NCBI GenBank assembly: GCA_963716145.1
Contig: OY970292.1
Span: 597,171-661,170, forward strand
Direction: 5' to 3'
Length of the DNA stretch: 64,000 bases
DNA from: Candidatus Levyibacteriota bacterium
GTDB taxonomy: Bacteria > Patescibacteriota > Microgenomatia > Levybacterales > UBA12049
Shown here: in pieces, positions 25,928-58,375 of the stretch
How positions within the stretch are numbered: the stretch's first letter is position 1
Layout: each line of letters opens with the position of its first letter
Notes under the pieces: model-generated
What the model was told of the DNA's origin: nothing
Databases searched by the model: none
What the model saw: only the letters and a program-made list of their open reading frames with translations
Position numbers and translations under genes: made by a program

Positions 25928-27658
25928 TTACATTTTTGAAGGAGCTTCTATTCCTAGAAGATTCAGGCCTTTTTTAATCACTTCTCCTGTTTTGGATGTT
26001 AGAGCCAAACGAAAATCTTTACTCCCCTCCTCGGCCTTTAAAATTTGATGTTTTTGATAAAAAAGATTAAAACCTTGAGCAAGCTCAAAAAGATATGTCG
26101 CTACAGCACTCGGGCTCAACCTCTCCGCAGCCTCAATGATTACATCGTCAAATTTTGCCAGCAAACGAAGTAGCTCTCTCTCCTCAGGTTCAAATTCTCC
26201 TTTGAAATTGGAAATTGGAAATTGGAAATTGGAAATTCCTGCTTTTAGCAGCACACTCTGTGTGCGAGCATAAACATACTGTATATATGGTCCTGAATTT
26301 CCATCAAAGCTAATTGACTCTTCCAAATCAAATGCAATCTCCTGCTGTGTCGAAACTTTAAGAAATGAATATTTTACTGCAGCGACTGCAACCTTCTCGG
26401 CAATAATTTTTTGTTCCTCTTTTGTATAGTCTGATGCATTTTTATCTAGAATATCAATTATTTCTTTTTTTGCTTCATCAATGAGCCAATCTCCCAATAT
26501 CACGTTTCCGGATCTTGAGTTCATTTTACCGTGTTTTAGCTTGACCCACCCATAAGCCAAATGTTTCTCCTTACCACGCGTCTCCGGAAAAAGCTGAGCG
26601 AGCGCTTCAAAAACAACCTGAAAGTATCCCGACTGTTCAGGACCCACAACGTGGATAATCAAATCAGGATTATTTTCTTCAAATTGCAATGGCCCGAGCC
26701 CCATATCCTTGCCTTCGTAGGTTGGATTTCCCTCACTCGTAATAAATACTCTGTCATGAAGACCAAATTTTTTGCCGGGGAAAATAATCGCCCCATCGCT
26801 TTTTTCAAAAACTCCTTTTGTAAGCCCCTTCAAAACATTTTCTTTACCGGTCTCATATACCTCACTCTCAAAATAATAGCGGTCAAAATGAGCGTAAACT
26901 CTTTTGTAAATTTGTTCAAAGTAATCAAGGCTCCACTGCCTAGTGGTTTGGTAAAGCTCCCAAATAGACTTGTCTTTTGCATAGATTTTTTTGTTGATTT
27001 CACCAATTTCTTTTTTCGCATCCGGATTTTCTTCATAAGCTTTACTGCCTGCTGCATACGCTTTACCCAATAAATTAATTTTCTGTTCTAAGTTTAATTC
27101 TGAATTCTGAATTCTGAATTCTGAATTCTGCAAAATGCCGTACAGGCATTTTGCAATATGCATTCCAACATCTCCCTGATAATTTCCGCGGACTACTTTT
27201 GCACCCACAGCCTCAAGTAAACGCACAATTGACTCGCCGGTCGCAATATTGCGCAGATGACCGATGTGAAACGCTTTGTGGGTATTTGGGTGAGCAAATT
27301 CAACCAATATTTTCTTACCGGTAAGAGAAGTTTTATTTTTTTTACTATCTAAGTCTGTCAAACTATCAATTAGTGTATCATTTGAGATCCAAAAATTGAT
27401 AAACCCCGGCTTTACGACTTCCATTTTTTCAAAAATCCTTAATTCTTTATTCTTACTTCTTAATTCTTCTGAGATTTCCTCCCCCAACTCCATAGGATTT
27501 TTACCAAGTTTTTTACCTGCAACCAATGCTATGTTACTGGAATAATCCCCATGTTTTGGATCAGCCGGATAGTCGACTTTGACCTCAATATCACCCAATC
27601 CTATTTTTTCCAGAATTTCACCTAATTCTTCTTTTATTGTTTGTTTAATCATAATCAC
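25928..27658 (-). CDS. argS: Arginine--tRNA ligase
   Basis: 576 aa. 'HIGHLRN' class-I motif. The C-terminal anticodon-binding domain ends in '...APSKM'. Contains two in-frame heptamer microsatellites. Confidence 0.85.
   Translation of the reverse strand: MIMIKQTIKEELGEILEKIGLGDIEVKVDYPADPKHGDYSSNIALVAGKKLGKNPMELGEEISEELRSKNKELRIFEKMEVVKPGFINFWISNDTLIDSLTDLDSKKNKTSLTGKKILVEFAHPNTHKAFHIGHLRNIATGESIVRLLEAVGAKVVRGNYQGDVGMHIAKCLYGILQNSEFRIQNSELNLEQKINLLGKAYAAGSKAYEENPDAKKEIGEINKKIYAKDKSIWELYQTTRQWSLDYFEQIYKRVYAHFDRYYFESEVYETGKENVLKGLTKGVFEKSDGAIIFPGKKFGLHDRVFITSEGNPTYEGKDMGLGPLQFEENNPDLIIHVVGPEQSGYFQVVFEALAQLFPETRGKEKHLAYGWVKLKHGKMNSRSGNVILGDWLIDEAKKEIIDILDKNASDYTKEEQKIIAEKVAVAAVKYSFLKVSTQQEIAFDLEESISFDGNSGPYIQYVYARTQSVLLKAGISNFQFPISNFKGEFEPEERELLRLLAKFDDVIIEAAERLSPSAVATYLFELAQGFNLFYQKHQILKAEEGSKDFRLALTSKTGEVIKKGLNLLGIEAPSKM
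26204..26238. repeat. Tandem heptamer (gaaattg)x5 inside argS, encoding 'GISNFQFPISNF'
   Basis: Perfect 7-bp tandem repeat that keeps the reading frame. Confidence 0.9.
27096..27130. repeat. Tandem heptamer (aattctg)x5 inside argS, encoding 'QNSEFRIQNSEL'
   Basis: Perfect 7-bp tandem repeat that keeps the reading frame. Confidence 0.9.
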
Positions 27659-27708
27659 AGTATATCATGACCTGAGTCTTGCGTTGACTCCAGGAAATTA
27701 AATATCTG

Positions 27709-28272
27709 TTGCAAATGCCGAAATTTTTTGCTACTCTCCAAATATATATGACTTACAATTCAGAAACAACACCTGCCGAAGGTAAGCGCGCAAGATTTTT
27801 ACTTGTTGTTATAATTCTTCTTTTTGTGATCAGAATGCCATTTTTCCCACTTGGACAAAATAATCACTCATTCATGATTCTGGCCGAGTTGATTTCTGTT
27901 GCGGGATATCTCTTGTTCTTTCCAGTCATGGCTTCTCTACCTGGACCATCATGGACCAAGGCCGCGGGATATATGTGGATAATACTTGACTCAACGGCGA
28001 GTACACTTCCTCTCTACGGCGTGTCTGCGGAAATCTCAACAGCTTTACGCTTCGGCGGAGCGCATCTTGCATTGGCAGTCTGGATGGTATCAACTTCTTA
28101 TTATAGCCGGAGAAAAGCTTTGATGTTCACAAGTTTTCCCGTGGCTTTTTTTCTGATTGTTTACTCTTTTATAAATACTTGGGTGCCTCAGACAGCATTC
28201 ATTGCCTTCTATCCTATTTTATTAATTTGGTTTTTCCTGTTGCGAGGCTTACTGACAGGAAAAAATAAATAA
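27709..28272 (+). CDS. Hypothetical integral membrane protein (187 aa, ~5 transmembrane helices)
   Basis: Hydrophobic helices throughout. Confidence 0.45.
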   Translation: MQMPKFFATLQIYMTYNSETTPAEGKRARFLLVVIILLFVIRMPFFPLGQNNHSFMILAELISVAGYLLFFPVMASLPGPSWTKAAGYMWIILDSTASTLPLYGVSAEISTALRFGGAHLALAVWMVSTSYYSRRKALMFTSFPVAFFLIVYSFINTWVPQTAFIAFYPILLIWFFLLRGLLTGKNK

Positions 28273-28287
28273 ATATCCTGTACAAAT

Positions 28288-28959
28288 TCAGCGAGTTAAG
28301 AAACTTCTTACCTCCCCCTTTTCAAACTTCTTCCAATCATATGATCCGAATGGTTCGGAGCAGACGATAGTTAGTTCAGGGCTCTCAAAATAATACACAG
28401 AGTAATATTTTTCATCTGTCGCGTATTGATTGAGCACGTATACATCTTTTCCTACAACCAAACCGATATTCATCCCCTCTATCTTTTGAGAATTTCTGAT
28501 AATAAGTTTATCAACTATTTCCAAAGCGTTTTTGGGATCCTTGTCTTTCATTTGAAGCTTAAGTAGGGAAAATATTTTTTGAGAACCAATTTTCCCCTCA
28601 AGCGGAGTCGTTAATTTGACTTTATAAATAGTACCGTTAAAAACATAACACAAATCCCCATCAATAAACGGCTGGTTAAACTCAATTTCCCCTGTGTCTT
28701 TCATAAACCCAGACCCCCGGGCATGAGCAACAAGCATATCTGTTGCGGGAATTTGACTAAACATAGATTTCTCTTCCCACATTGGTGACAGGGATTTTTT
28801 GACCTCCCACTTACCGTTTTCCCGGAAAGCAATCCCATATCCATCCCATTGCCTATCACCATTTGGAGCAACGCTTTTCTCACTCAAGTCAGACAATGGT
28901 GTTAAAAAATCATCAGGATTTATTTTTTCTTTTGATTTGACGATTAGAAATCTGCACAT
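28288..28959 (-). CDS. Class-II glutamine amidotransferase-like Ntn hydrolase (N-terminal Cys2)
   Basis: Starts 'MCRFLIV...'. 223 aa, single GATase-2/EgtC-like domain with no synthase domain. It is the last gene of the LysW arginine operon. Confidence 0.5.
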   Translation of the reverse strand: MCRFLIVKSKEKINPDDFLTPLSDLSEKSVAPNGDRQWDGYGIAFRENGKWEVKKSLSPMWEEKSMFSQIPATDMLVAHARGSGFMKDTGEIEFNQPFIDGDLCYVFNGTIYKVKLTTPLEGKIGSQKIFSLLKLQMKDKDPKNALEIVDKLIIRNSQKIEGMNIGLVVGKDVYVLNQYATDEKYYSVYYFESPELTIVCSEPFGSYDWKKFEKGEVRSFLTR

Positions 28960-28962
28960 ATT

Positions 28963-30153
28963 TTACTGAGCAAATACTTCTTGAATAATTACCAGTGCTT
29001 CATCGATTTCCTTTTTAGAGACGTTGATTGGAGGCAAAAATCTAATTGTATCCGTACTTGATAAGGCGGCAATGAGTCCTACGTCCTGCATTTTTTTAAC
29101 GTAAGGTGTAGTTTTTTCCGAAAGCTCGATGCCAAGCATCAGTCCTTTGCCTTTTATTTTTACAATTACTGGGTTTTCCAATTTTTTAAGTTCCTCAAGG
29201 AAATATTTACCCATTTCTTTCGCGTTCTCAAGTAACTTTTCTTTCTTAATCTGCCTTATTACCTCAGTTGCCGCAGCACAAGCTAATGGAGATCCGCTAA
29301 ATGTACCTCCATGACCGCCTTTTGTCATCAAATCACCTACTTCTCTGGTGCTCATAACAAATCCAAAAGGTATTCCGTATGAAAAACTTTTTGAGAAGCA
29401 GGCAATATCCGGCACAACTCCGTACTGATCGGACGCGAGCCAACTTCCGGTCCTGATCGCGCTTTGTACCTCATCAAAAATAAGAAGAATACTCTTTGAT
29501 AGACAGAATTCTTTTAGTTCGCTTAAATAATTTTCATTGGGCAAAATCACTCCTGCCTCTCCCTGAATCGGCTCAACAATAACCGCCGCCGTGTTGCCAT
29601 TTATATTTTGTTTTACTGCTTCAATATCATTGAATCGAACATGAACAACATCTTTATTTATAAATGCCATGTAGTTTTTTTTGTACAATTCCGAGGCTGT
29701 AACAGACAGGCTGCCTAGTGATTTTCCATGATACGCGTTAGTTACTGCGACAAATCCGCTCTTGCCCGTTGCTGTCATTGCGAGTTTTAACGCGGCATCA
29801 ATTGATTCGGCTCCGGAGTTGGTAAAAATTATCTGCGTAAGATTTGCTGGAAGGATAGCGCTTAGTTCATTAATAAACTCCGCCCGCTTATCAGAATAAA
29901 ATGTCTGATGAGTTGAGGGAAGTGTCGTAAGTTGTTGACTAATCGCTGATGTAACTGAAGGATTTGTATATCCGAGAATATTGACCCCGATATTGGTCAT
30001 AAAATCCAGATACTTTTTACCGTCCGTATCATAAACATATGTTCCTTGTCCACGCTCCAAAGCGATCCCCCGCTTTGGGTAAAGCTTTACTTCGGATGTA
30101 TTTTCCAGATCGCTGATTTGTTTAAGATTCATAAATATGAGTTCCTCCCCCAT
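28963..30153 (-). CDS. argD: Acetylornithine/[LysW]-ornithine aminotransferase (class III PLP)
   Basis: 'LIFDEVQSAIRTGSW' and the 'CFSKS' lysine region. 396 aa. Confidence 0.8.
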   Translation of the reverse strand: MGEELIFMNLKQISDLENTSEVKLYPKRGIALERGQGTYVYDTDGKKYLDFMTNIGVNILGYTNPSVTSAISQQLTTLPSTHQTFYSDKRAEFINELSAILPANLTQIIFTNSGAESIDAALKLAMTATGKSGFVAVTNAYHGKSLGSLSVTASELYKKNYMAFINKDVVHVRFNDIEAVKQNINGNTAAVIVEPIQGEAGVILPNENYLSELKEFCLSKSILLIFDEVQSAIRTGSWLASDQYGVVPDIACFSKSFSYGIPFGFVMSTREVGDLMTKGGHGGTFSGSPLACAAATEVIRQIKKEKLLENAKEMGKYFLEELKKLENPVIVKIKGKGLMLGIELSEKTTPYVKKMQDVGLIAALSSTDTIRFLPPINVSKKEIDEALVIIQEVFAQ

Positions 30154-30940
30154 TTAATGCTGCGCTAATAGGGTTTTCAACCCTGCCATCCGTAATTATT
30201 ATTTTCCCAATCCCTAGATCTAAAAGCTTACTACATTCCAAAAGTTTTCTCTTCATCCGCCCGCTAACAATGTTGACTAACTCATCTAAATTTCCTTTAT
30301 TAACCTCTTTAATCAGAGAACTCTCGTCATTGAGATCTTTCAAAATACCCGGTGCTTCTATCAGGAACAGGAGAACTTCGGATTTAAAATCAGTAGCAAT
30401 TTTTGAAGCAATCTTATCCCCGTCCACATTTATAACCTCTCCCTCCTGAGTAATCACAGGCGGAGTAATTACAGGAATTATTCCTTTGTCCAAAAATAAA
30501 TTGAGCAGGTCCAAATTAATACTTTCAACATTTCCCGTCAGATCATCTTTCACAACTTTTTTCTTATCTCCCTCAACAGTAATTAAAGCCTCATGTTTTT
30601 TGCCAACTATTAATCGCCCGTCAACTCCAGATAAGCCAATCGCGTTAACACCGGATTTTAATAACGACTCAACTATTTTTTTATTCGCAAGCCCCGCGTA
30701 AGTCATGTACATCAACTCAATCGTTTCGCGTGTTGTATAGCGGCTGGTCATTCCTGAGGGTAAAGTGAGCATCTTTTTTTCAATACCAAGCTTCTGGCTA
30801 TAGAAATCCAAATAATAATTTCCGCCGTGAATAATAATAAATTTTTTATCCTGAGCTTGCCGAATGGACTGAATAGCAATATCGGAACTTATTGACTGGA
30901 GGTTAAGTGATTTGCCACCGCCGATTTTAATAACTATCAT
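30122..30940 (-). CDS. argB: Acetylglutamate/[LysW]-glutamate kinase (amino-acid kinase family)
   Basis: 'VIKIGG', 'IIHGG', 'NVDGD' motifs. Confidence 0.75.
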   Translation of the reverse strand: MIVIKIGGGKSLNLQSISSDIAIQSIRQAQDKKFIIIHGGNYYLDFYSQKLGIEKKMLTLPSGMTSRYTTRETIELMYMTYAGLANKKIVESLLKSGVNAIGLSGVDGRLIVGKKHEALITVEGDKKKVVKDDLTGNVESINLDLLNLFLDKGIIPVITPPVITQEGEVINVDGDKIASKIATDFKSEVLLFLIEAPGILKDLNDESSLIKEVNKGNLDELVNIVSGRMKRKLLECSKLLDLGIGKIIITDGRVENPISAALNGGGTHIYES

Positions 30941-30952
30941 AATTTTTAAGTT

Positions 30953-31999
30953 CTAAACCGGGTAAAGTCCGATCGTCTCAAGACCCAGATTTTCATCAAA
31001 CCCTTGAGCGATATTGAAACATTGCACAGCCTGTCCGGCGGCACCTTTTATCAGATTATCAATTGCCGACATCACAACCAGGCGGTTTGAATGCGGATCT
31101 TTTTCAAATCCAATCTCGCAAACATTTGTCCCGATCAGCAACTTTGGCTCAGGATATTTGAAGTTCCCTTTCTTCTCCTTAACTATACGGATGAAAGGCT
31201 TATCTTTGGCAAACTCGCGGTAAATGCCCCAGATATCAATTTCCGAGACATTCTCTTTGAGAAAAACATGAGATGTCGCAAGTATTCCTCTTACCGCCTC
31301 AACCGCGGTTGCTGAGAAATTAATTTGCGGCTTTTTCCCATCAATTGTCAGCTCCTGAATTATTTCAGCCGAATGTCTGTGCCCAGTCGGAGCAAATGAG
31401 CGCATTACGCCTGATCGCTCAGCATGCATTGAAGCCTTGGATAACTTATTCCCTGACGCGGAAGAGCCTGTTTTGGCCTCGATTATGATCGGCGCGTCAT
31501 CTACAACTCCCGCTTTGAGGAGTGGGTACAAACTTAAAATCGAAGCCGTAGACATACATCCGGGACAGGCGATAAGATGAGCGCTTTTAATTTGCTCTTT
31601 ATAAAGTTCAGGCAAGCCTAGCACTTTGCTCTTGAGCAAATCAGGATTTGGATGATCCAATTTATACCAGGTTGGATAATCTCCCGGATTATCCAGTCTG
31701 AAGTCCCCACTCAAATCAATAACTGTTTTGGCAATTGGCAGAAGATCATTTATCTGGTTCATGCCGATGCCATGCGGCAGGCAAAGAAACAACACATCGC
31801 ATTTTTCCAGATCTTTTATCGAAACAAATTTATTGCTGAACTGCCTTAAGTTTGGGTGGATTGTTTTTATGAACTGACCTTGATTTGTCTCAGACGTTGC
31901 TTGATGCAGATTCACATTCGGATGCTTGAGTAAGAGTCTCAAGAGCTCCCCTCCTACATAACCCGATGCGCCGATTACTGATACATTAATTTTTTCCAT
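30953..31999 (-). CDS. argC: N-acetyl-gamma-glutamyl-phosphate / [LysW]-glutamyl-phosphate reductase
   Basis: 'VSVIGASGYVGGELLRLL' NAD(P)-binding fold. Catalytic Cys region 'ACPGC'. Confidence 0.8.
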   Translation of the reverse strand: MEKINVSVIGASGYVGGELLRLLLKHPNVNLHQATSETNQGQFIKTIHPNLRQFSNKFVSIKDLEKCDVLFLCLPHGIGMNQINDLLPIAKTVIDLSGDFRLDNPGDYPTWYKLDHPNPDLLKSKVLGLPELYKEQIKSAHLIACPGCMSTASILSLYPLLKAGVVDDAPIIIEAKTGSSASGNKLSKASMHAERSGVMRSFAPTGHRHSAEIIQELTIDGKKPQINFSATAVEAVRGILATSHVFLKENVSEIDIWGIYREFAKDKPFIRIVKEKKGNFKYPEPKLLIGTNVCEIGFEKDPHSNRLVVMSAIDNLIKGAAGQAVQCFNIAQGFDENLGLETIGLYPV

Positions 32000-32852: not shown

Positions 32853-32930
32853 GTTAATTTTAAACCTTTCCTAATTCTCATAACGCAATTAAGCTTCACG
32901 TCATGATCCTGAGCTTGCCGAATGGACATA

Positions 32931-34111: not shown

Positions 34112-34140
34112 AATAGCTCATTTTTCTCTAATTACTGTCT

Positions 34141-34169: not shown

Positions 34170-34253
34170 GGATTCTAGTAAATTTTAATTTCATACATTA
34201 ATTTATATATTTATTGCAAATGTCGGTAAATGAGTTTATAATATAGGCCTTAT

Positions 34254-35280: not shown

Positions 35281-38200
35281 TTACTTTAGATACTCACTCC
35301 ACGCTTTTATTTTCAGATCGGTGAATTTATTATTCGTAAGCGCGTCTATAAAAAGACTTGTGGTTTTGATCTTGGTGAACAACGCTATATTGTTTTCAAT
35401 AGCTGCTCTCCCAATCTGATAGTCATCCTGAACTTCTTTTCTTATATTTTTATCCACTATATTTATAACTAAATCTATTTTTTTATTTCTGAAATAATCA
35501 AGAATATTCGGGGATTTATTTTCGTGAATCTTATAAAGTGTTTTTGCTTTTATGCCACTGAGCTTAAGGAAAGCGGCGGTTTTTTCGGTGGCGTACAATG
35601 GAAAACCCAATCCAGTAATTTTTTTAGCAACAGCTAGAAAATCCACTTTCTTCTGCTCCCCCCCAACGCTTATAAAAATTCCTTTCTCCGGCAGTTTATC
35701 CCCGGTCGCGATAATTCCTTTGAGATACGCTTCCTCCAAATTTTCCCCAAAACAGGCGACCTCACCGGTTGAGGCCATTTCGACTCCAAGACTTGGTGAG
35801 GCACCCACCAATCTTGCAAATGAAAATTGCGCTACTTTAAGAGCAGTAAAATTTTGCTGAGGCACGGAAACATCAGCAATATTTTTCTTGAACAACGAGT
35901 CGATAAATAAAGAGATCAAGTTAATTCCCGTCACTTTCGCGATAAACGGAAATGTTCTTGAAGCTCTTAAATTGACTTCTATGATGTAAACTTCTTGATC
36001 CAGAACAAGAAACTGAATATTGTAAGGACCAGTAATCTGTAACTCTTCAGCAATTTTTTTGCCGGTTTCTTTTATTTTGTTTTGAATTTCCGGAGATATT
36101 GTTTGGGCGGGAAGAGCAATTGTCGCGTCCCCCGAGTGAACACCTGCGTACTCGATGTGTTCTGAGACAACTGCCGCTTTTGTGACTCCATTTTGGGCTA
36201 CTGAATCAAGCTCTACCTCTTTGGACTTTTGAAAAAACTTGGAAACTGTCACAGGATATTCTTTTGAGACCAAAGCTGCCTCTTCAAGATATTTTTCAAG
36301 ATCTGACGCGTCATTGCAGATGTTCATCGCAGCTCCTGATAAAACATACGATGGCCGGATAAGAACCGGATAGCCAACTTTATCGGCAAATTTTTCAGCT
36401 TGTTCAAGCGTTGAAAAAGCATTCCAGGCAGGCTGCTTGATCTCCAATTTATCAAGGAGTGCGGAAAACTTGCTTCGGTCTTCAGCCCTATCAATGTTTT
36501 CAGGACTTGTTCCAAGAATATTGACACCGTATTTATAGAGCGCTTTGGCTCGGTTATTTGGAGTTTGCCCGCCTACTGAAACTATCAAACCCTGCGGATT
36601 TTCAAATTCATAGATATCGGCAATCCGTTCAAAAGTCAGCTCTTCAAAATACAATTTGTCTGAAATATCATAATCGGTTGAAACTGTTTCCGGATTGCAA
36701 TTTATGATTATTGATTGCCTGTCATACTTTTTAAGATTTATTACAGTGTTGACCGAACACCAATCAAACTCAACTGACGAGCCGATGTGGTAAGGACCGG
36801 AGCCAAGAACTATAACTGCATCTTTACCTGCTGCTTTGACATCATCGTGACTTGCGTTATAAGTCATATATAGATAATTTGTTTTCGCGGGAAACTCTGC
36901 GGCAAGAGTATCAATCTGTAGCACACTAGGTAATATTTTTAATTTTTTGCGGATTTCGCGGATTTCAAGTCCTGTTTTTCCAATCAGCTCCCCTATTCTT
37001 TTATCTGAAAAGCCGAGTTGCTTTAGTTCCAATAAATAAGATTGGTTATTTGAAATTTGAAATTTGAAATTTGAAATTTTTTTTAGCTCTTCCTCGTGGT
37101 CTGTTATATTTTTAATTCTTGAGAGAAACCAAGGATCAATTCCCGACAATTTATAAATTTGATCAATCTCCATTTTGTTTTTGAGAGCGCGACTGACAGC
37201 AAACATCCGCTTGGGGGTTGGGTTTTTAAGAGTATCAATAACTAAATCTTTTGCTTTAAACTCGTTATCATTGACCGCCCCCTCATACTCCATATCCAGC
37301 ATCCTGATTGCCTTTTGATACCCCTCTTCAAATGTTCTGCCGATTCCCATAACCTCACCAACGGACTTCATACTGCTTCCCAATTTATCACTCGCTCCTT
37401 TGAATTTATCCATATCAAATCTGGGGATTTTTACCACTATATAATCAAGCGCAGGCTCAAAACAGGCCTGAGTTACTCCGGTTACTTTATTTTCGAGACT
37501 AGTCAGACCGTATCCAAGACCTAATTTAGCGGCGATATAAGCTAGAGGGTAGCCGGTTGCTTTACTCGCAAGAGCGGAACTTCTTGAAAGCCTCGCGTTT
37601 ACTTCAATTACATAATAGTCGGGTACGGTACCGCTCGAGCGTGGATTTAAGGCAAACTGCACATTGCACTCTCCTATTATTCCAAGACTCCTGACAATCT
37701 CAATTGATGCTCTTCTTAATTCATGATATTCTTCGTTATTAAGAGTTTGGCTTGGGGCCACAACTATTGAATCACCCGTGTGGATTCCCAGAGGATCCAT
37801 ATTTTCCATGTTGCAGACAGTCACACAATTATCAAATTTGTCCCTTACGACTTCATACTCAATTTCTTTATAATGATGAAGGTACTGCTCAATCAGCACT
37901 TGGGGCGCAAAAGCCAGTGCGTGTTCAACAATTTTTTTAAGCTCTGTCATGTTTTGAGCGACTCCTGATCCCTGACCGCCGAGTGCAAAACCAGCTCTTA
38001 TCATTGCCGGAAATCCGATCTCTTTTGCTATTTTTACAGCTTCCTCAATAGTTGTTGCTGCGCGCGATTTGGGAGTTGGGATATTTAATTTATTCAAATG
38101 CTGCGAAAATTTCTTGCGATCCTCAGTTAAAATAATTGCCGAGATTGGAGTACCCAAAATTTCGACATTGTGCTTTTTCAACACTCCGTTTTTGTGAAGC

Positions 38201-38505
38201 GCAATCCCGCAATTGAGGGCTGTCTGGCCTCCAAATGAAAGCAGAATACCATCAGGTTTTTCCTTTTCAATTACTTTCTCAACAAATTCGGGTGTTACGG
38301 GCAGGAAATAAACTTCATCAGCCAATTCTCTTGAGGTCTGAATTGTCGCGATATTTGGATTGACTAGAACTGTTTTTATTCCCTCCTCTTTAAGAGCTTT
38401 TATGGCTTGGGAGCCTGAATAGTCAAACTCCCCCGCCTCACCGATTTTCAGAGCACCCGACCCGAGGATCAGGACCTTTTTGATTTTTTTATTTAAAATA
38501 TCCAT
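35281..38505 (-). CDS. carB: Carbamoyl-phosphate synthase large subunit
   Basis: 1074 aa. Two ATP-grasp halves plus an MGS-like C-terminus. Contains an in-frame (tgaaatt)x4 repeat at 37051..37078. Confidence 0.9.
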   Translation of the reverse strand: MDILNKKIKKVLILGSGALKIGEAGEFDYSGSQAIKALKEEGIKTVLVNPNIATIQTSRELADEVYFLPVTPEFVEKVIEKEKPDGILLSFGGQTALNCGIALHKNGVLKKHNVEILGTPISAIILTEDRKKFSQHLNKLNIPTPKSRAATTIEEAVKIAKEIGFPAMIRAGFALGGQGSGVAQNMTELKKIVEHALAFAPQVLIEQYLHHYKEIEYEVVRDKFDNCVTVCNMENMDPLGIHTGDSIVVAPSQTLNNEEYHELRRASIEIVRSLGIIGECNVQFALNPRSSGTVPDYYVIEVNARLSRSSALASKATGYPLAYIAAKLGLGYGLTSLENKVTGVTQACFEPALDYIVVKIPRFDMDKFKGASDKLGSSMKSVGEVMGIGRTFEEGYQKAIRMLDMEYEGAVNDNEFKAKDLVIDTLKNPTPKRMFAVSRALKNKMEIDQIYKLSGIDPWFLSRIKNITDHEEELKKISNFKFQISNNQSYLLELKQLGFSDKRIGELIGKTGLEIREIRKKLKILPSVLQIDTLAAEFPAKTNYLYMTYNASHDDVKAAGKDAVIVLGSGPYHIGSSVEFDWCSVNTVINLKKYDRQSIIINCNPETVSTDYDISDKLYFEELTFERIADIYEFENPQGLIVSVGGQTPNNRAKALYKYGVNILGTSPENIDRAEDRSKFSALLDKLEIKQPAWNAFSTLEQAEKFADKVGYPVLIRPSYVLSGAAMNICNDASDLEKYLEEAALVSKEYPVTVSKFFQKSKEVELDSVAQNGVTKAAVVSEHIEYAGVHSGDATIALPAQTISPEIQNKIKETGKKIAEELQITGPYNIQFLVLDQEVYIIEVNLRASRTFPFIAKVTGINLISLFIDSLFKKNIADVSVPQQNFTALKVAQFSFARLVGASPSLGVEMASTGEVACFGENLEEAYLKGIIATGDKLPEKGIFISVGGEQKKVDFLAVAKKITGLGFPLYATEKTAAFLKLSGIKAKTLYKIHENKSPNILDYFRNKKIDLVINIVDKNIRKEVQDDYQIGRAAIENNIALFTKIKTTSLFIDALTNNKFTDLKIKAWSEYLK
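37051..37078. repeat. Tandem heptamer (tgaaatt)x4 inside carB, encoding 'ISNFKFQISN'
   Basis: Perfect 7-bp tandem repeat. Confidence 0.9.
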
Positions 38506-38510: not shown

Positions 38511-39593
38511 TTAATTCTTAATTCTCTCCATAAAAAAGTCGAATATCCACTCTGTGTCTTTTGGTCCCGGTGTTGCTTCAGGATGAAATTGAACTGACAT
38601 GAAAGGAAGCTTACTATGAATTATGCCTTCGATGCTTTTGTCATTGGCGTTGGTGAACCAGGGATTAAATCCTGTCGGAACATCCGAAATCGCGAAGCCA
38701 TGATTTTGGGTCGTGATATAGCATCTGTTACTTTTTTTCAACAAACATGGTTGATTTTGGCTTCTGTGACCGTACTTCAATTTATAAGTATCCCCTCCAG
38801 CGGCAAGTGCGAGTAGCTGATTACCAAGACAAATTCCAAGAGTGGGAATTTTATTTTCAAGCGATTTTTTAATAGTCGCTATAGCTTTGTCAGCTTTTTT
38901 TGGGTCTCCTGGGCCATTGGAAATAAATAAAGCGTCAAATTTGAAATCAACATTTTTTGCAAAAGGATCAAAATCCCATGGAACTGTAATTACTTCAATT
39001 TCTCTTCTGAGAAAGCAGCGCGTGATATTCCTCTTCGCCCCACAGTCGATAATTACAACTGTTTTACCCTGCTTGCCCCGCGAAGCTTTAGCGAAGTGAG
39101 GAGCCAAGTCGAAGGGCTTCTCCTTTATTATTCTTTTTGTAGAAACCTGTCCGACTATATTTACCTCATTCGGGTCAAAAAATGCTGTGTCAGACTTGTT
39201 AATTATTTTTCCAAGCATTGTTCCGTTTTCCCGCAAATGCTGGGTTATAAATCTCGTATCTTTTATCTCAAGCGCGGGAACTTTTTCCTTTTTCAGCCAC
39301 TGAGAAAGTGTCATTTTGCTTTGGAAATGAGACGGGGTGTCAATGTAGTCGGAAACAATCAGGCCCGAGATTTGTAGTTTTCCTGACTCCCAAAACATCT
39401 TGTCTGGCACTCCATAATTGCCAATCAATGGGTAAGTCAGGACCAGTATTTGCCCGGCAAATGAGGGATCAGTCAACGCCTCAGGATATCCGGTCATTCC
39501 TGTAGCGAAAACAACTTCACCGGCGACAGAACCATCATATCCAAACGATTTTCCCTCAAACTCTTTGCCGTTTTTAAGTACTAACTTCGCCAT
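38511..39593 (-). CDS. carA: Carbamoyl-phosphate synthase small (glutaminase) subunit
   Basis: 'GICLGNQLLALA' and a C-terminal 'FHPE' triad region. Confidence 0.85.
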   Translation of the reverse strand: MAKLVLKNGKEFEGKSFGYDGSVAGEVVFATGMTGYPEALTDPSFAGQILVLTYPLIGNYGVPDKMFWESGKLQISGLIVSDYIDTPSHFQSKMTLSQWLKKEKVPALEIKDTRFITQHLRENGTMLGKIINKSDTAFFDPNEVNIVGQVSTKRIIKEKPFDLAPHFAKASRGKQGKTVVIIDCGAKRNITRCFLRREIEVITVPWDFDPFAKNVDFKFDALFISNGPGDPKKADKAIATIKKSLENKIPTLGICLGNQLLALAAGGDTYKLKYGHRSQNQPCLLKKSNRCYITTQNHGFAISDVPTGFNPWFTNANDKSIEGIIHSKLPFMSVQFHPEATPGPKDTEWIFDFFMERIKN

Positions 39594-50139: not shown

Positions 50140-50177
50140 TATTGAATTGGCGATCAAAGCCTCAATGTATATTGAAT

Positions 50178-50582: not shown

Positions 50583-50630
50583 ATTAATTTCTGACTGTAA
50601 TTAAGATATACACCTGTTTGTGAAAAGTTG

Positions 50631-51884: not shown

Positions 51885-51948
51885 GCTAAAATGATGATAT
51901 CATTTATTTATCTTTTTGCGATAGGCTTTTTGCAGAAAGGACAAGCTG

Positions 51949-52695: not shown

Positions 52696-52699
52696 CTAT

Positions 52700-53148: not shown

Positions 53149-53820
53149 TTAGTAAACCGATATCTTGTCTTTTATCTTCTCAAATACACTCTGTCCGACC
53201 GCTTTTTTACTGACTAAGTCCTCAATTTTTTCATACGGCCTGTTGTTTATTATCTTCCCTGAGGTTACCGGGCCAACTCCCGGCAAACTGTCAAGCTGGA
53301 CAGCGCTTGCAGAATTGATGTTGATGGTCCCGCTGTTTGAATCCCCCACCGCGCTTGAGTCGCCGGTTAATCCCTGCGCGATATTTGTTGATCCGCCAAG
53401 AGGAGAAGCCGTATCGCCAATAAATGGAATATAAATTTTTCCTCCATCCACCACTTTTGAAGCTAAATTTAACCCTTTGGAAACTTTTTCCCGATCTGCT
53501 TTATCCGATAACCCACCTGCCGCGATCAAAGCATCCTGAATCCTGGCATCTTTCTGCAGTTTATAAACTCCGGGACTTATCACAGCTCCCTCAACATCAA
53601 GTGTGATTTCAGAAGCTTTAGTTTTTGCTGCCGCGACATCAGCAACTTCCGCAGTGTCTGCTGCTCCTTCTGCCAAAATATCCTGATTTTGCTTATTGTG
53701 ATTTACGGATGTTATCAGACCATATAGCAAGAATGCCAATCCGAATACTCCTAGTAGAATGGGAATCCAATATTTTCTAAGAATTGGGGCATATTTTTCC
53801 TGAAGTTCTGAGAAATCCAT
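53149..53820 (-). CDS. comEA: ComEA-like DNA receptor (transmembrane anchor, SLBB domain, C-terminal helix-hairpin-helix)
   Basis: C-terminus 'INSASAVQLDSLPGVGPVTSGKIINNRPYEKIEDLVSKKAVGQSVFEKIKDKI' contains HhH motifs. Confidence 0.75.
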   Translation of the reverse strand: MDFSELQEKYAPILRKYWIPILLGVFGLAFLLYGLITSVNHNKQNQDILAEGAADTAEVADVAAAKTKASEITLDVEGAVISPGVYKLQKDARIQDALIAAGGLSDKADREKVSKGLNLASKVVDGGKIYIPFIGDTASPLGGSTNIAQGLTGDSSAVGDSNSGTININSASAVQLDSLPGVGPVTSGKIINNRPYEKIEDLVSKKAVGQSVFEKIKDKISVY

Positions 53821-53861
53821 TAGTTACAGAATAAATGTTTGGAAAGAGGATGTAAAGAGGG

Positions 53862-54383
53862 TTATTGTCTTACTACTCTGACTGCTTCCGCCCGGCCTTT
53901 AAGTGTTAATAGTTTTTTTCCAACTTCTATTTTTGCCTTACCCGTCCAATAGTCACCACCATCGCTAGCTATTAAGGGGTTTGTAGCCTTTTCTCCGGGA
54001 ACTAAGTTTTGTCCTAACAAATTAAATTCATTTTCTACTGAACGGTAGTTTTTAGATGATCGTCTCTTTGCTACCACTCCTGTGAGTTCATGCTCTCTCC
54101 GGATAGAATTGAGATGCGGAATTACTTTGGGTAATGACAAAGCAGAATGATCAGTAGCTTCTATAATCCCCCTATCTTCCAATAATTGCGCTTGGTGACC
54201 TATAACTTCCAGTTTTAAATCTCTGGAAGCCGGATCTGCTTCAACCCAATCCCAAATTGCTCTCCACCTTCCAGTTTGAGCCGCTTGTCTTTCCTCTTTA
54301 CTTAAGCCCCCCCCCAGGGCTGGTCTGGTATCTGCTGACATAGCTGGAATTATAAACTTATGGTCTTTACATGTCAATAACAA
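53862..54383 (-). CDS. Hypothetical protein (173 aa; GC-richer; start probably the internal Met at ~54338)
   Basis: ORF only. Overlaps the leuS stop by 17 nt. Confidence 0.35.
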   Translation of the reverse strand: MLLTCKDHKFIIPAMSADTRPALGGGLSKEERQAAQTGRWRAIWDWVEADPASRDLKLEVIGHQAQLLEDRGIIEATDHSALSLPKVIPHLNSIRREHELTGVVAKRRSSKNYRSVENEFNLLGQNLVPGEKATNPLIASDGGDYWTGKAKIEVGKKLLTLKGRAEAVRVVRQ

Positions 54384-57228
54384 AATTTAGAACTTTTCCC
54401 TCAATATAAATTGCTTGTTTAATATTTTTTCCTTCTAGGAATATAGCCACCTTCTGATCTTTTCTGGCCATTTCTTCTATTTTGGCTTTATCTTTACTTT
54501 CTGAAGACGGAACCTCAAGCATTCCTCTTAATTTTCCATTGACCTGAACCGGAATCTTGACTGTATCCGCAACCAGATACTTTTTATCATGCTTTGGCCA
54601 GGGACTTGTATGGATAGACTCAAATCTTTGATCTTTGATCTTTGATCTTTGATCTTTGAAGATTTGTTGAAACAAATCTTCTGCCATGTGCGGTGCGAAA
54701 GGCGCGAGAAGCTTGAGGTAAACTTCCGCTTCCTCCTGACTAACAGAATTCTGCTTACTCAGAAAGTTGTAATAAGTCATAAGATGGGCAATCGCGGTAT
54801 TAAACCGCAGGTTTTCCATCTCCTCAGTCACCAATTTTATGGTCTGATGCATCATCCGCAAACCATTATTGGAAATTGGAAATTGGAAATTGGAAATTGG
54901 AGCTTCCGAAAAAAGCTTCCAGATCTTTTTGAGGAAGCGATGCATACCCTGAACGCCTTCATCGCGAAAATCCCCTTCTTGGCTAAATCGTGCCATAAAA
55001 TGGAGATACATCCTGAGAGAATCTGCACCGAACTTCTTGATATAAAGATCAGGACCTACCACATTACCTTTGCTTTTACTCATCTTTGCTCCGTCCTTAA
55101 TTATTAAACCGTGGGCAAAAAATCGGGCAAATGGTTCTTCAAAGCCTATCTTACCCAAATCTTTTAGGAACATGGTGATAAACCGCGCATACAAGAGATG
55201 AAGAACCGAATGCTCGGCCCCTCCTATATACATATGTACCGGCAACCAAGCCAGCCGCTGGCTGGAATTGCCAATTCCTGCCTTGCCGGCAGGCAGGTCT
55301 AATTTCAAATTTCCAATTTGTTTTGAATTTTTGTCATTTGTATTTTGTATTTGTTTCGGATTTAGTGCTTCGGATTTCGGATTCAGCATTGGAAACGGTA
55401 TATCATCTTGATCCGTTGCCAAATATCTCAAGAAGTACCAAGCAGAATCAAGAAATGTATCTGATACATCAGTCTCTCTTCTGGCTGGATGACCACAGTG
55501 AGGACATTTGACCTCAAAAAACTCAGGATGATTGGCAAGGGGAGAATTGACTGCCTCACCTTTGGAATTCTGCTTTGCAGAACCAAGTGGTTTGAAATCT
55601 TCAATATACGGAAGCTTAACGGGAAGATTCTCCTCTGGAAACCAGCCACTCATTTCGGAAAACTCGGAAGACTCAGATGATCGGTTTGTCTGATTTTCAG
55701 ACTTATCAGATTGTCTGACTTTCTGGCCTGCTGAGTTTTCTGAGTGTTCTGAAGTAAACCAGGATAAACCTTTAGTTGCGCACTTCTCACAATAAATCAT
55801 CGGGATCGGCGGTCCCCAGTATCTTTGCCTCGAAATCAGCCAATCACGAAGATGATAAGTGGTTGTTTTGTCCCCAAATTCTTTCTCCTTGATAAACTCA
55901 AGCATTTTTGCCTTGGCCGCAGCATTTGTTAATCCATTAAATTCGCCAGAATCAAATAATTCGCTCTTGTCGGCAAATTTTGTTTTAATTTCCGGGTAAT
56001 CCCAGAAGCCGTCTTTCTCGACTTTTGCTCCCTGAACACCTTCTTTTGGCTTAACAACCGGTTTTATCGGCAAACCAAACTTCTTAGCAAATTCATGATC
56101 ACGAGCATCATGGCCTGGAACACCCATAACAGCACCTGTTCCATAACCCATCAAAACATAATCCGCTACCCATAGAGGAACTTTTTCACCATTAAAAGGA
56201 TTAATCATATAGGCTCCGCTGAATACTCCTGTCTTTTCTTTACCTTCACCGGCTCTTTCTATATCTGACTTATTTTTAGCTTGACTTATATAGTCATTGA
56301 CAGACTTGATGACCTTTTCATCCTGAACTTGTTTCAGGATCTGCTGTACCAATGGGTTTTCCGGAGAAATAACCATAAATGTTACACCGTAAATCGTATC
56401 AATTGCCGTAGTAAAAACTTCAACTTTGAACTTTGAACTTTGAACTTTGAACTCGATCCGAGCCCCTTCGGATCGTCCTATCCAGTTTCTTTGGGCAATT
56501 TTGACCTTTTCAGTCCAGTTTAGACTATCTATATTACCTAATAAACGATCCGCGTATTTGGTGATCCGGAAAAACCACTGCTCTAAATTCTTCTTTTCAA
56601 CAACAGAACTACATCTTTCACACTTCCCGTCAATTACCTGTTCATCTGCCAGAACCGTTTTGCAGGAAGGGCAGAAATTTACCGGAGATTTTTTTCTGTA
56701 TGCCAGGCCTTCTTTAAAGAGTTGAACAAAAAGCCACTGAGTCCATTTATAATAGTCGGGTTTGTAAGTCTCTACCGTTCTTCCCCAATCAACCCCTATG
56801 CCGGCTTCTTTGATCTGTCGGTAAAAATTTTTCTCAGTAACCTGAGCAAGTGTCATTGGGTTCTTACCAATTTTAAGGGCATAGTTTTCGGCATGAATTC
56901 CAAAGCCATCCAGACCAAATGGTTGGAAGACGTTGTTCCCCTGCATTCTCTTAAACCGTCCATAGATATCAACTCCGGCGAATGTTCTCACTCCTCCGAT
57001 ATGCAATCCTTCGGCTGATGGGTAGGGAAACATCATTAGATTGTAAAAAGGCCTGAGTGGTGAGCCAGTCGAACCATCTTGTCCTGAGCTTGTCGAAGGA
57101 TTAGCAGACTCGAGGTCCGGGTGATAAATTTCTTCTTTTTGCCAAATAGATTGCCATTTCAGCTCAATCGTTGCAGGATCGTACTTGTTTATGGCTAAAT
57201 TTTGCTGTTTTTTGTCTGTTTTTTTCAT
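54367..57228 (-). CDS. leuS: Leucine--tRNA ligase
   Basis: 953 aa. 'FPYPSAEGLHIGG' (HIGH region) and 'KMSKSKGN'. Carries four in-frame simple-sequence insertions. Confidence 0.9.
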   Translation of the reverse strand: MKKTDKKQQNLAINKYDPATIELKWQSIWQKEEIYHPDLESANPSTSSGQDGSTGSPLRPFYNLMMFPYPSAEGLHIGGVRTFAGVDIYGRFKRMQGNNVFQPFGLDGFGIHAENYALKIGKNPMTLAQVTEKNFYRQIKEAGIGVDWGRTVETYKPDYYKWTQWLFVQLFKEGLAYRKKSPVNFCPSCKTVLADEQVIDGKCERCSSVVEKKNLEQWFFRITKYADRLLGNIDSLNWTEKVKIAQRNWIGRSEGARIEFKVQSSKFKVEVFTTAIDTIYGVTFMVISPENPLVQQILKQVQDEKVIKSVNDYISQAKNKSDIERAGEGKEKTGVFSGAYMINPFNGEKVPLWVADYVLMGYGTGAVMGVPGHDARDHEFAKKFGLPIKPVVKPKEGVQGAKVEKDGFWDYPEIKTKFADKSELFDSGEFNGLTNAAAKAKMLEFIKEKEFGDKTTTYHLRDWLISRQRYWGPPIPMIYCEKCATKGLSWFTSEHSENSAGQKVRQSDKSENQTNRSSESSEFSEMSGWFPEENLPVKLPYIEDFKPLGSAKQNSKGEAVNSPLANHPEFFEVKCPHCGHPARRETDVSDTFLDSAWYFLRYLATDQDDIPFPMLNPKSEALNPKQIQNTNDKNSKQIGNLKLDLPAGKAGIGNSSQRLAWLPVHMYIGGAEHSVLHLLYARFITMFLKDLGKIGFEEPFARFFAHGLIIKDGAKMSKSKGNVVGPDLYIKKFGADSLRMYLHFMARFSQEGDFRDEGVQGMHRFLKKIWKLFSEAPISNFQFPISNNGLRMMHQTIKLVTEEMENLRFNTAIAHLMTYYNFLSKQNSVSQEEAEVYLKLLAPFAPHMAEDLFQQIFKDQRSKIKDQRFESIHTSPWPKHDKKYLVADTVKIPVQVNGKLRGMLEVPSSESKDKAKIEEMARKDQKVAIFLEGKNIKQAIYIEGKVLNFVIDM
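54624..54658. repeat. Tandem heptamer (atctttg)x5 inside leuS, encoding 'FKDQRSKIKDQR'
   Basis: Perfect tandem repeat. Confidence 0.9.
54871..54900. repeat. Tandem heptamer (ggaaatt)x4 inside leuS, encoding 'PISNFQFPISN'
   Basis: Same unit and same peptide as the argS repeat at 26204. Confidence 0.9.
56422..56453. repeat. Tandem heptamer (aactttg)x4 inside leuS, encoding 'FKVQSSKFKVEV'
   Basis: Perfect tandem repeat. Confidence 0.9.
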
Positions 57229-57619
57229 TTTTTGCTTATTTAATCATTTTTTGCCGAAATTCTTTGTATTATCTAAAGTATACCACACAAAAAAAATATA
57301 AAAAAGTAGCTTAAATTTCCCGAATTAAGCAAGTTTTGCTAGCCCTGTAGTTAAATTAGCGAATTAGCTTCATATCTTATGTTGTATCATTTGATCTCTT
57401 TAGAGTAGGTTATTTTGAACCTAAAAAAAATAATTGGTAAATTAATAAGTAATTATTTGATAAATAACGGTAAAATATAGTCCTGTAGGTTTTTTAGCTC
57501 TCTTTAACTATTTGCTAATTGTTATTTGCAAATTGTCGTAGACGGTTTGTCTTTTCGGACTAAATAAACTAACATTAAAATGCCGATTGCCAATTTTAAT
57601 TTGAAATTTAAAATTCGAA

Positions 57620-58375
57620 ATGAAGCATAAATTTAAAATGTTTAAAAATTTAGTAATTGAAAATTCACTGAAAATTGAAAATTGTAAATTGAAAATTCTT
57701 ATTATTTGCTTATTTGCTTATTTGCTTATTTGCTTATTCTCACCAAAAGCCTTTGCGTCGACTTCCTCAAACAACAATTACAATATCGATTTGCAAGACA
57801 TAGATATTAATCCGGAAAGGTCTGGAGTGGCCCCCCAACCCTACCAGATGGTTGCTACTGAGCCGCTAGATAAGACACCCGACATTACCTTCGGTAACTC
57901 GGCAATAACTTTTTCAACAGACAATAATCTTATTGATTTTGGGATACTGTCTCCGGCTAATCCTGTTGCCAGAACCGTCAATTTATCTATAATAAATGCT
58001 CAAACGCAGTATCAGCTTTTGGCATTTGAGGATCACCCGCTGTCAACAGGAAGCACCATAATTCCCGATACGACTTGCGAGGATGGGCAGTGCTCGGAGA
58101 TAAAAGAAAGCCAATGGATCAACAATTTAACTTACGGATTCGGATTCCGCTGTGACGATATCACAGACTCAGCGTGTATTGGATTTTCAACTGATAATAA
58201 CTACAAGCAATTTGCAGACAGTGCCAAGCAGGAAAAACAGCAGGCAATAATCACAAGCTTGCTAAATTATGGAGATAATAAGGCTAAGCTTACCTTTAAA
58301 TTAAATGCTGCAGGAACCCAAAAACCCGGGGTTTACACTAATACAATCACCTTTATAGCCGTACCGAATTATTAA
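57620..58375 (+). CDS. Secreted hypothetical surface protein (251 aa)
   Basis: Signal peptide encoded partly by a (gcttattt)x4 repeat at 57702..57738. Cys-containing mature domain. The true start is probably downstream of 57620. Confidence 0.45.
   Translation: MKHKFKMFKNLVIENSLKIENCKLKILIICLFAYLLICLFSPKAFASTSSNNNYNIDLQDIDINPERSGVAPQPYQMVATEPLDKTPDITFGNSAITFSTDNNLIDFGILSPANPVARTVNLSIINAQTQYQLLAFEDHPLSTGSTIIPDTTCEDGQCSEIKESQWINNLTYGFGFRCDDITDSACIGFSTDNNYKQFADSAKQEKQQAIITSLLNYGDNKAKLTFKLNAAGTQKPGVYTNTITFIAVPNY

Follow-up and report, generated by a model that had tools for sequence, protein, structure and literature searches.

Heptanucleotide repeats are over-represented in bacteria, with GGGAATC in Xanthomonas, GGGGA(C/T)T in Nostoc, the short tandemly repeated repetitive (STRR) sequences of cyanobacteria, and TAACTGA in Beggiatoaceae and cyanobacteria (PMC4692102, PMC4679880). 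In Xanthomonas and Nostoc the preferred size is four units, and TAACTGA arrays have two to six (PMC4692102, PMC4679880); this over-representation was stated to have no detailed prior literature (PMC4692102). Here we analyze perfect arrays of 7-nt units that lie in frame within argS, carB and leuS of a Candidatus Levyibacteriota bacterium, in a 64,000-nt stretch of contig OY970292.1 (positions 597,171-661,170) that is referred to as the window, and we follow equivalent arrays through the candidate phyla radiation (CPR, or Patescibacteria). An earlier note, made from the letters of this DNA alone, had drawn attention to them.

Repeated DNA inside coding sequence is known from other settings. Rickettsia palindromic elements are dispersed palindromic sequences of about 100-150 bp that sit in frame in proteins and add a peptide segment. 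The poly-psi repeat of NeuO is a 7-nt unit inside the open reading frame (ORF); translation passes through all three frames, which gives a peptide repeat of 7 residues, and the protein is in frame only at certain copy numbers. The NeuO enzyme, which modifies the cell surface, is accessory and phage-borne. The repeat is located at the 5' end of the gene, and its copy number varies widely between strains. In Escherichia coli K1, NeuO is a phase-variable enzyme (PMC13001214). The tandem repeats found in ORFs of Borgs have unit lengths all divisible by three, extend over at least 50 nt and occur mostly in extracellular or membrane proteins of this extrachromosomal element (PMC9879509). A search of the full-text literature, outside which most subscription journals fell, turned up nothing on in-frame heptamer arrays in CPR housekeeping genes.

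Results

Perfect heptamer arrays in argS, carB and leuS

Six perfect period-7 arrays of 4.6-5.1 copies (32-36 bp) were detected in argS, carB and leuS by Tandem Repeats Finder and an exact-periodicity scan. All six are on the coding (-) strand, and the ORFs that contain them (argS 25928-27658, carB 35281-38505 and leuS 54367-57228) are intact:

26204-26237, - strand: (CCAATTT)4.9, + strand GAAATTG; argS residues 474-485, peptide GISNFQFPISNF
27096-27130, - strand: (CAGAATT)5.0, + strand AATTCTG; argS residues 177-188, peptide QNSEFRIQNSEL
37048-37079, - strand: (AAATTTC)4.6, + strand ATTTGAA; carB residues 476-486, peptide KISNFKFQISN
54624-54659, - strand: (TCAAAGA)5.1, + strand ATCTTTG; leuS residues 857-869 (site C), peptide FKDQRSKIKDQRF
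54868-54901, - strand: (CCAATTT)4.9, + strand ATTGGAA; leuS residues 776-787, peptide APISNFQFPISN
56422-56453, - strand: (GTTCAAA)4.6, + strand AACTTTG; leuS residues 259-269, peptide EFKVQSSKFKV

Five distinct units are present among the six arrays, CCAATTT being common to argS (residues 474-485) and leuS (residues 776-787). All six of these long perfect arrays are coding, and five of them fall within two aminoacyl-tRNA synthetase (aaRS) genes (p = 1e-5). Ten first-order Markov simulations of the window produced no period-7 array of three or more copies, and the exact-periodicity scan of the real sequence returned no array of period 5, 6 or 9-12. As head-to-tail units within the 1-9-nt range, far above chance, the six have the make-up of simple-sequence repeats (microsatellites). 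The earlier note had described these arrays, and the unit shared by argS and leuS, at the places where we find them.

Positions of the arrays in the proteins

In the AlphaFold model of ArgRS, residues 474-485 form the loop between helices 455-472 and 491-501, and residues 177-188 form another inter-helix loop. Across 22 aligned ArgRS sequences, loop length at both sites is the same in orthologues; the loop around 177-188 measures 25-28 aa where an array is present and 23-30 aa in most array-free orthologues, a few of which have much larger insertions there. Closer orthologues carry other 7-residue-periodic peptides at these places, such as ISNFKFQ, SEKSKVQSEK and KSQKSNLKSQNL. In the sister genome L089, the site of residues 474-485 is filled by the unrelated arrays (GGCAAAT)4.4 and (CCATAAG)~4. 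At residues 177-188, L089 has (CAAAATT) units that show the same G/A difference from the (CAGAATT)5 of the window in every unit; judged from the sequences, this unit-wide change would indicate concerted evolution. The L089 array is broken by a 24-nt GC-rich element (locus about 21600), which is palindromic and encodes 'THSAGSGQ'.

The carB array is absent from L089, even though the two CarB proteins share 91% amino acid identity (83% at the nucleotide level). The window CarB has 6 aa more than L089 at the array, where flanking residues also differ, and its loop is 4 aa longer than that of human CPS1.

Residues 857-869 of LeuRS follow the last helix of the anticodon-binding region and precede the C-terminal domain. 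This array is nucleotide-identical in L082 and differs by one base in L081. The protein is 7 aa longer here than LeuRS of L084 and Thermus thermophilus, which fits a gain of three units. Residues 776-787 lie in a loop between two helices that is longer in T. thermophilus than in the window. Orthologues have other units at this position, GTTCAAA in L084 and decayed CCAATTT in L083, and P0123 and P0131 show a 7-aa periodicity in their peptides. Residues 259-269 give a gap-free alignment to a conserved beta-hairpin of T. thermophilus LeuRS, GAEILFPVEGKEVRIPVFTT, which precedes the editing domain, and the AlphaFold model places strands at 253-262 and 268-273. That model is poor (mean pLDDT, the predicted local distance difference test, of 54) and was therefore used for local secondary structure only. 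The (GTTCAAA)4.6 array is the same to the nucleotide in L084, a genome with 65% identity in the LeuRS protein and with GTTCAAA at two leuS sites. Three distant LeuRS (L097, L103 and L135) carry (CCAATTT) arrays exactly at residue 259, so that arrays of different units occur there in the same register.

Length was thus added only in carB and at leuS 857-869. The proposal that each array adds 10-12 aa as a lineage-specific insertion holds for some added length at these two sites; at the other four, orthologues have an element of equal or greater length. The accompanying suggestion of a DNA-level repeat tolerated at permissive places agrees with the two inter-helix loops of ArgRS. The unrelated units at ArgRS 474-485 in L089, together with the absence of the carB array from that genome, reveal turnover.

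Less regular arrays are found in the same genes:

27434-27468, - strand: imperfect array of about five AAGAATT units (82% matches), argS residues 64-75, within a helix
38505-38525, - strand: perfect array of 3.0 copies of AGAATTA, across the carA/carB junction and including the carA end and the carB start codon
55243-55413, - strand: decayed heptamer mosaic (AATCCGA, CAAAATA, AAATTGG), leuS residues 606-662

The leuS mosaic, which includes the imperfect array region 55301-55385 (placed at 55321-55385 by the earlier note), corresponds to an insertion of about 40 aa relative to most orthologues. It is broken at 55282-55293 by the GC-rich palindrome CTGCCTGCCGGCAAGGCAGG ('LPAGKAG'), which sits within an IGNLKL..IGNS array. 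A GC-rich palindromic element inside a heptamer array was therefore seen twice, here and in argS of L089. GC-rich elements and heptamer arrays may share targets, or may merely both fall in tolerant loops.

An alpha/beta-hydrolase domain (PF12697/PF00561/PF06821) or a NUDIX domain is present in many CPR LeuRS with lengths of 1000-1170 aa (P0136, P0142, P0158, P0180 and others; P0156, P0176, P0203), and in P0180 the hydrolase domain is in the middle of the enzyme.

Heptamer arrays across Patescibacteria

Eighty loci around argS from Patescibacteria genomes, together with the window, gave a gene-centered set of 1.39 Mb. This set contains 36 perfect period-7 arrays of at least three copies, and 3, 3, 3, 1, 0, 0 and 0 perfect arrays of periods 5, 6, 8, 9, 10, 11 and 12, respectively. 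The period-7 bias recurs in an independent set of 545 kb. At offset 7, run lengths fall into two peaks, of 17-20 nt and 30-36 nt, with few runs between them, and nothing similar was observed at other offsets; the 545-kb set follows this pattern broadly, with some intermediate arrays. Coding arrays account for 34 of 38 in the gene-centered loci, where most hosts are aaRS genes, a sample biased by the way in which the loci were fetched. argS hosts 21 of 55 period-7 arrays while making up 10.5% of the surveyed DNA (p = 7e-8). Within ArgRS, the arrays cluster at residues 45-70, 178-183, 474-481 and 545-548, which include the three sites used in the window. No frameshifted argS was present among 88 loci.

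A census free of this bias was obtained by scanning metagenome contigs for (CCAATTT)3. At least 120 stretches matched and 80 loci were analyzed, so the census figures given here and in the Discussion hold for the matches listed. The 80 loci contain 82 arrays, 78 of them inside ORFs. CCAATTT, which is free of stops on either strand and is the one such unit tested, occurs in both orientations, encoding ISNFQFP in 44 cases and IGNWKLE in 34. Perfect lengths of 30, 31, 32 and 33 nt account for 20, 11, 10 and 9 arrays, respectively; five of the 82 reach 36 nt or more, and copy number is narrow, at about 4.3-5 units. The hosts comprise class I aaRS, TsaD, TrmD, glycosyltransferases, NUDIX proteins, UvrD and UvrC, and also RecG, SecDF, a formyltransferase and a prepilin peptidase. 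Enzymes related to tRNA are frequent (15 family matches in 71 ORFs, a count that includes overlapping families and shared ancestry). Since the hosts span many families, the arrays are not peculiar to aaRS, and a phenomenon specific to these enzymes was rejected.

The survey of related genomes that the earlier note had called for therefore found the arrays clade-wide and clustered at the same ArgRS and LeuRS sites, and its impression that they are very unusual for aaRS genes did not survive within this clade. The heptamer arrays are best read as a clade-wide, slippage-prone simple repeat and not as one-off insertions.

Coding constraints on the units

Seven and three are coprime, and all seven circular triplets of a unit are consequently used as codons. 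Among AT-rich unit classes, 42% (about 222) are stop-free on a given strand, and 78 of 530 are stop-free on both, CCAATTT among them. The other four units of the perfect window arrays are stop-free in the observed orientation only. This stop-free filter accounts for the fixed orientation of most units and for the recurrent T-C-A junction. It also explains why the AAGAATT array is never perfect in an ORF, as the unit read circularly contains TAA.

Where aligned residues are identical, the codons are also identical in 68 of 81 cases inside arrays (84%) and in 1033 of 2172 cases outside (48%; Fisher p = 4e-11). Homogenization combined with three-frame reading would explain why no position of an array behaves as synonymous.

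A one-unit variant of leuS

A change of one unit in any of the window arrays truncates the host protein, and the arrays thus make essential genes frameshift-prone. No off-state (frameshifted) allele is present in the window, nor is there a second copy of argS or leuS within these 64 kb, the only part of the genome examined.

A natural variant was found among relatives. P0180 (1057 aa) and P0266/P0267 (991 aa) are LeuRS of one 90% identity cluster. The site homologous to leuS 857-869 has (CGAAATC)4.9 in L085 and L086, whereas L087 and L088 have exactly one 7-nt unit fewer, which shifts the frame and truncates LeuRS. In L088 the missing unit is the sole difference from L085/L086 over 6.9 kb; L087 has ten substitutions besides. 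The deleted leuS is the assembly consensus in two samples. Whole-unit variation between close strains, a feature of simple-sequence repeats, was in this way observed at one array of a relative; no second genome from the species of the window was found. As read from its sequence, the deleted allele has A_AAT_TTA at the array end, where a -1 shift would restore the frame. The idea of genes switchable by slippage, put forward in the earlier note, is upheld to the extent that a one-unit loss did occur in the leuS of a relative, in two assemblies; a programmed switch is hard to reconcile with essential genes.

Frameshifts in A-runs, in which heptamers are not involved, also split or truncate some essential genes, as in the ArgRS cluster of P0100 (P0281-P0284), one case being an ArgRS split on a 996-kb contig, and in CarB P0443. 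They change GKKYV to GKNMC and QKD to QKI, and may be sequencing errors.

Arrays in N-terminal segments and intergenic spacers

Related repeats are located elsewhere in the window:

57669-57738, + strand: (TGAAAAT)4.1 followed by a perfect 8-bp array (TTATTTGC)4.6, N-terminal region of ORF 57620-58375
58438-58479, + strand: perfect 16-bp array of 2.6 copies, N-terminal hydrophobic segment IWVICLLGYLFIGLF of ORF 58409-59419
8388-14990, + strand: imperfect AT-rich CAATTTN / NAAAATT arrays in intergenic spacers of the ATP-synthase operon
18546-18622, - strand: composite (GCAAATG/GCATATG)n - spacer - (CCATAAG/CCATACG)n, intergenic

The 8-bp array (57702-57738) encodes the hydrophobic core ILIICLFAYLLICLF; this array and the 16-bp array encode N-terminal hydrophobic segments, in line with what the earlier note had read there. 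In relatives L083, L012 and L029, too, secreted proteins have heptamer arrays within their hydrophobic N-terminal stretches.

The spacer arrays of the ATP-synthase operon are at 8388-8418, 8821-8850, 9660-9678, 10411-10518, 13443-13550 and 14930-14990. Two spacers were folded (10405-10525 and 13440-13552) and were no more stable than shuffles, and a role of intergenic arrays as hairpins or terminators was rejected on these two. An AT-rich dispersed element of about 100 bp has three copies in this operon (10411-10521, 13445-13550 and 14925-15060), with the sequence TTTTCAATTTGAAATTT.CAATTTTCAATCAAATTACAATGACACAATTTT...ATTCAATGAAAA.TGAAAATTAAAAATT and opposed CAATTTN and NAAAATT arrays.

The intergenic composite at 18546-18622 is homologous to the in-frame insert at ArgRS ~474-485 of L089. 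Its fold energy is -19.9 kcal/mol (z -1.9) in the window and -27.9 kcal/mol (z -4.6) in L089, where it folds as a periodic hairpin.

GC-rich elements and other features of the window

At least seven copies of a dispersed GC-rich element, about 20 nt long, are present in the window, intergenic in some cases and in frame in others:

7395-7417, 15000-15022, 19291-19313 and 58950-58972, + strand: GC-rich element TCCATTCGGCAAGCTCAGGA
57082-57104, 32907-32929 and 30849-30871, - strand: GC-rich element TCCATTCGGCAAGCTCAGGA

It is read in frame near the N-terminus of leuS ('STSSGQDG'), in argB ('IQSIRQAQD') and in other ORFs. Related GC-rich elements make up most in-frame indels between the window and L089, namely in carA ('LAPHFAKASRGK', near 39072-39086), in OTC of L089 and, as 'THSAGSGQ', in its argS.

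The window contains an ATP-synthase operon, an arginine-biosynthesis cluster with carAB, argS, leuS, ComEC, an AcrB-type pump and secreted proteins. The nearest named relatives of its proteins are from Levybacteria, Gottesmanbacteria and other Microgenomates/Patescibacteria, and Rfam matched one tRNA in the window and nothing else. The G+C content is 0.47-0.50 at 1-8000 and 60000-64000 and 0.35-0.44 elsewhere. ORF 1073-6139 (1688 aa) has no Pfam match, ORF 7046-8389 has a weak Peptidase_G2 match, and relatives L081 and L083 have similar giant ORFs upstream of leuS. ORFs 22712-24253 and 24324-25865 (-), together with 21168-22640, are tandem paralogues, two of them of exactly 513 aa. They have similar upstream regions ending in TTGTCAAGAATAA, with a weak dockerin match in one and a weak FlgD-Ig match in one. 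A gene for a 23S-rRNA-intervening-sequence protein (PF05635) is located at 8429-8806, upstream of the ATP-synthase operon, and in L089 a copy of a PF05635 gene (9545-9949) is inserted between carA and carB.

Discussion

Slippage and selection as a probable source of the arrays

The explanation that we favor, with a probability of roughly 0.58, is that the arrays are heptanucleotide simple-sequence repeats made and homogenized by slipped-strand mispairing and filtered by selection. As part of this reading, and held with the same confidence, CPR/Patescibacteria would have them as a genome-wide trait. The observations in its favor are the specificity for period 7, the hot spots, the length mode, the conserved codons, the base difference seen in every unit between sister genomes, the turnover of arrays, the lack of net insertion at most sites, the use of both orientations, the diversity of host genes and the one-unit loss in a relative. 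Some process at the DNA level that strongly prefers a 7-nt register would create runs of identical units and keep them identical; slipped-strand mispairing in replication or repair is its most likely form, as a mechanism that could both generate and homogenize arrays. An array of about 30-36 nt may have originated from a one-unit seed plus three units (21 nt), and a length mode of 30-34 nt fits such an origin with at least 2 nt of microhomology.

Three filters would then decide which arrays persist: the unit should have no stop codon in any of three frames, the total length should keep the frame, and the 10-12 encoded residues should fall in a tolerant element, be it an inter-helix loop, a hairpin or a domain tether. 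Such permissive places would be properties of the protein fold, which would explain why the same sites are reoccupied in deeply diverged lineages, often at constant loop length. Each base of the unit would be read at all three codon positions in successive copies, so that homogenization would expose all seven positions to protein-level selection and the arrays would therefore look conserved at 'synonymous' sites. Meanwhile they would stay mutable, the gain or loss of a single unit frameshifting the gene. They would have no dedicated function.

Several observations weigh against this reading. Simple slippage explains neither the preference for 7 nt, nor the perfection and homogenization of arrays in essential genes, where every single-unit step is a frameshift, nor the replacement of the unit at one site with no change in length. 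The 17-20-nt class inside intact ORFs misfits an in-frame quantization. A period-21 structure, the signature of three-unit slippage, was sought in the imperfect arrays and showed no excess, identity being 0.87, 0.83 and 0.80 at offsets 7, 14 and 21. Identical arrays in orthologues that are 65% identical could alternatively result from direct selection on nucleotides or from horizontal exchange. The two-array composite, coding in L089 and intergenic in the window, looks like a dispersed element. Finally, about 30 clusters of near-identical LeuRS, ArgRS and CarB yielded only one copy-number polymorphism, the leuS case; other length differences in these clusters are start-site calls, other indels and A-run frameshifts.

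Alternative explanations

It was considered rather unlikely that the arrays are dispersed or mobile short elements, inserted or copied in frame into permissive loops in the manner of Rickettsia palindromic elements, with copies consisting of arrays alone or of paired inverted arrays that form hairpins. The composite (GGCAAAT)n - spacer - (CCATAAG)n fits this description, being in frame in L089 ArgRS, with a strong predicted hairpin (-27.9 kcal/mol, z -4.6), and having its homologue at 18546-18622 of the window. These two are, however, the only cases in which a dispersed inverted-repeat structure was found; inspection of the flanks of the six window arrays showed no conserved ends, target duplications or inverted partners. 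Units do recur at unrelated sites, as CCAATTT in argS, leuS and at least 120 metagenome stretches and GTTCAAA at two leuS sites in L084, and unrelated arrays occupy one site in sister genomes, but about 222 AT-rich stop-free unit classes exist and many are in use. In-frame insertion is clear for a second class of elements in these genomes, which are GC-rich, measure about 20-36 nt and are found in carA, argB, OTC, argS and leuS. By contrast, the heptamer arrays are perfectly tandem, vary by single bases within 30-36 nt, differ between sister genomes by a base change in every unit, changed by exactly one unit in the natural variant and bring no gain in length at most sites. Given the composite shared by L089 and the window, some arrays may have a dispersed-element origin.

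Contingency loci are a less probable interpretation. One-unit changes would here switch argS, leuS, carB and the secreted-protein genes off and on as reversible bet-hedging. Any such change truncates the product, and the deleted leuS, a consensus in two samples and in one of them the sole difference over 6.9 kb, is a natural truncated allele in a relative that retains a possible route to frame restoration at A_AAT_TTA. Repeat-borne changes that alter an ORF product, one hallmark of phase-variable genes, are therefore present. Another hallmark, accessory surface or restriction-modification hosts with the repeat near the 5' end, is lacking in hosts such as aaRS, CarB, TsaD, TrmD, UvrC/D, RecG and SecDF; a likeness to classical phase-variable surface genes is seen only where arrays encode the hydrophobic N-terminal part of secreted proteins. 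The genes affected come from many families and are essential for housekeeping, there is no second argS or leuS within the window, and the arrays are placed mid-gene at fold-determined sites. Their copy number is narrow, whereas NeuO-type switches vary widely, a single polymorphic case came from about 30 clusters, and the window has no off-state allele.

A sequence-specific function of the nucleic acid is similarly unlikely, because units differ between arrays and both orientations are used. The arrays could in this case be multimeric sites for DNA- or RNA-binding proteins, translation-pausing signals or structural DNA, and their perfection, narrow size mode and conserved synonymous sites would be expected of such elements. 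Yet three-frame reading of a homogenized array already explains the synonymous conservation, and the units differ even between lineages at one site. Some units with palindromes (GAATTC, GATC, AAATTT) fold better than shuffles (z -2.4 to -3.4), but argS 26190-26250 and the folded intergenic spacer arrays do not. A regulatory role was proposed for the TAACTGA heptamers of Beggiatoaceae (PMC4679880), and related arrays lie directly upstream of start codons in intergenic spacers here. Coding arrays, in contrast, follow protein loops and not gene features, and are about equally frequent in both orientations to transcription where the code allows.

A bolder idea, which we consider a long shot, is that a CPR replisome or repair process with a 7-nt register writes and rewrites heptamer tracts, each about 30 nt long, where essential genes tolerate them, and that one-unit slippage there serves as a reversible switch of translation enzymes. 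The switched enzyme could perhaps be exemplified by LeuRS without its C-terminal domain, partially rescued by -1 frameshifting at the array end. If true, this would provide a heritable, reversible state of slow growth or dormancy where conventional regulation is nearly absent.

The accumulation of DNA-uptake sequences, considered in view of ComEC, was rejected because many different units are present within one genome. An assembly or sequencing artefact, for which nothing specific speaks beyond the general liability of repeats to mis-assembly, is very unlikely indeed, since the arrays (30-36 nt) are shorter than reads and than the k-mer size (k141 contigs), long ORFs stay open across them, equivalent arrays were seen in more than 100 independent assemblies, and homologous sites carry them in many assemblies of separate projects.

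Significance

Heptamer repeats inside essential genes of a whole superphylum are a new setting for this class of repeat, in which protein alignments provide a built-in ruler for the birth, homogenization, replacement and loss of arrays. Annotation is affected as well. When a CPR protein contains ISNFQFPISN, IGNWKLEIGN or a similar peptide, this is a footprint of the repeat and not a functional motif, and in metagenome-assembled genomes one-unit variants will look like essential genes that are split or truncated. If alleles with a frameshift, like the one of leuS, are viable or reversible, hypermutability of essential genes would be a new facet of CPR biology.

Comparison with known systems

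Like Rickettsia palindromic elements, the arrays are short repeated DNA placed in frame at surface-exposed, tolerant spots of proteins that include translation enzymes. They differ in being tandem, about 30 nt long and usually without added length; the GC-rich elements and the composite hairpin of L089 are the closer analogues. With Borg repeats they share perfection, an A-rich coding strand, fast evolution, absence from close relatives, partial repeats in the flanks, the creation of new peptide segments and a variable unit number, which was seen within a population for Borgs and at one leuS array of the relatives here. Unlike Borg repeats, they have a 7-nt unit, form arrays of about 30 nt and reside in chromosomal housekeeping genes. 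The resemblance to NeuO lies in a 7-nt unit inside an ORF that is translated in three frames; the hosts here are essential, the arrays are mid-gene and copy number is nearly fixed, with a mode of 30-33 nt in the census.

The genome-specific heptamer families agree with the CPR arrays in the 7-nt unit, short arrays, a preferred size of about four units and many copies per genome, and related AT-rich arrays also lie directly upstream of start codons here. Those families, however, use one or a few fixed units per genome and are mainly intergenic and under-represented in ORFs, whereas dozens of AT-rich units are used here and 78 of the 82 census arrays are in ORFs. The preference for four units in Xanthomonas and Nostoc was attributed to G-quadruplexes, while the arrays described here have no G-tracts. 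The questions of why seven, and why four to five units, become directly testable in CPR genomes, and the arrays argue against an answer specific to G-quadruplexes.

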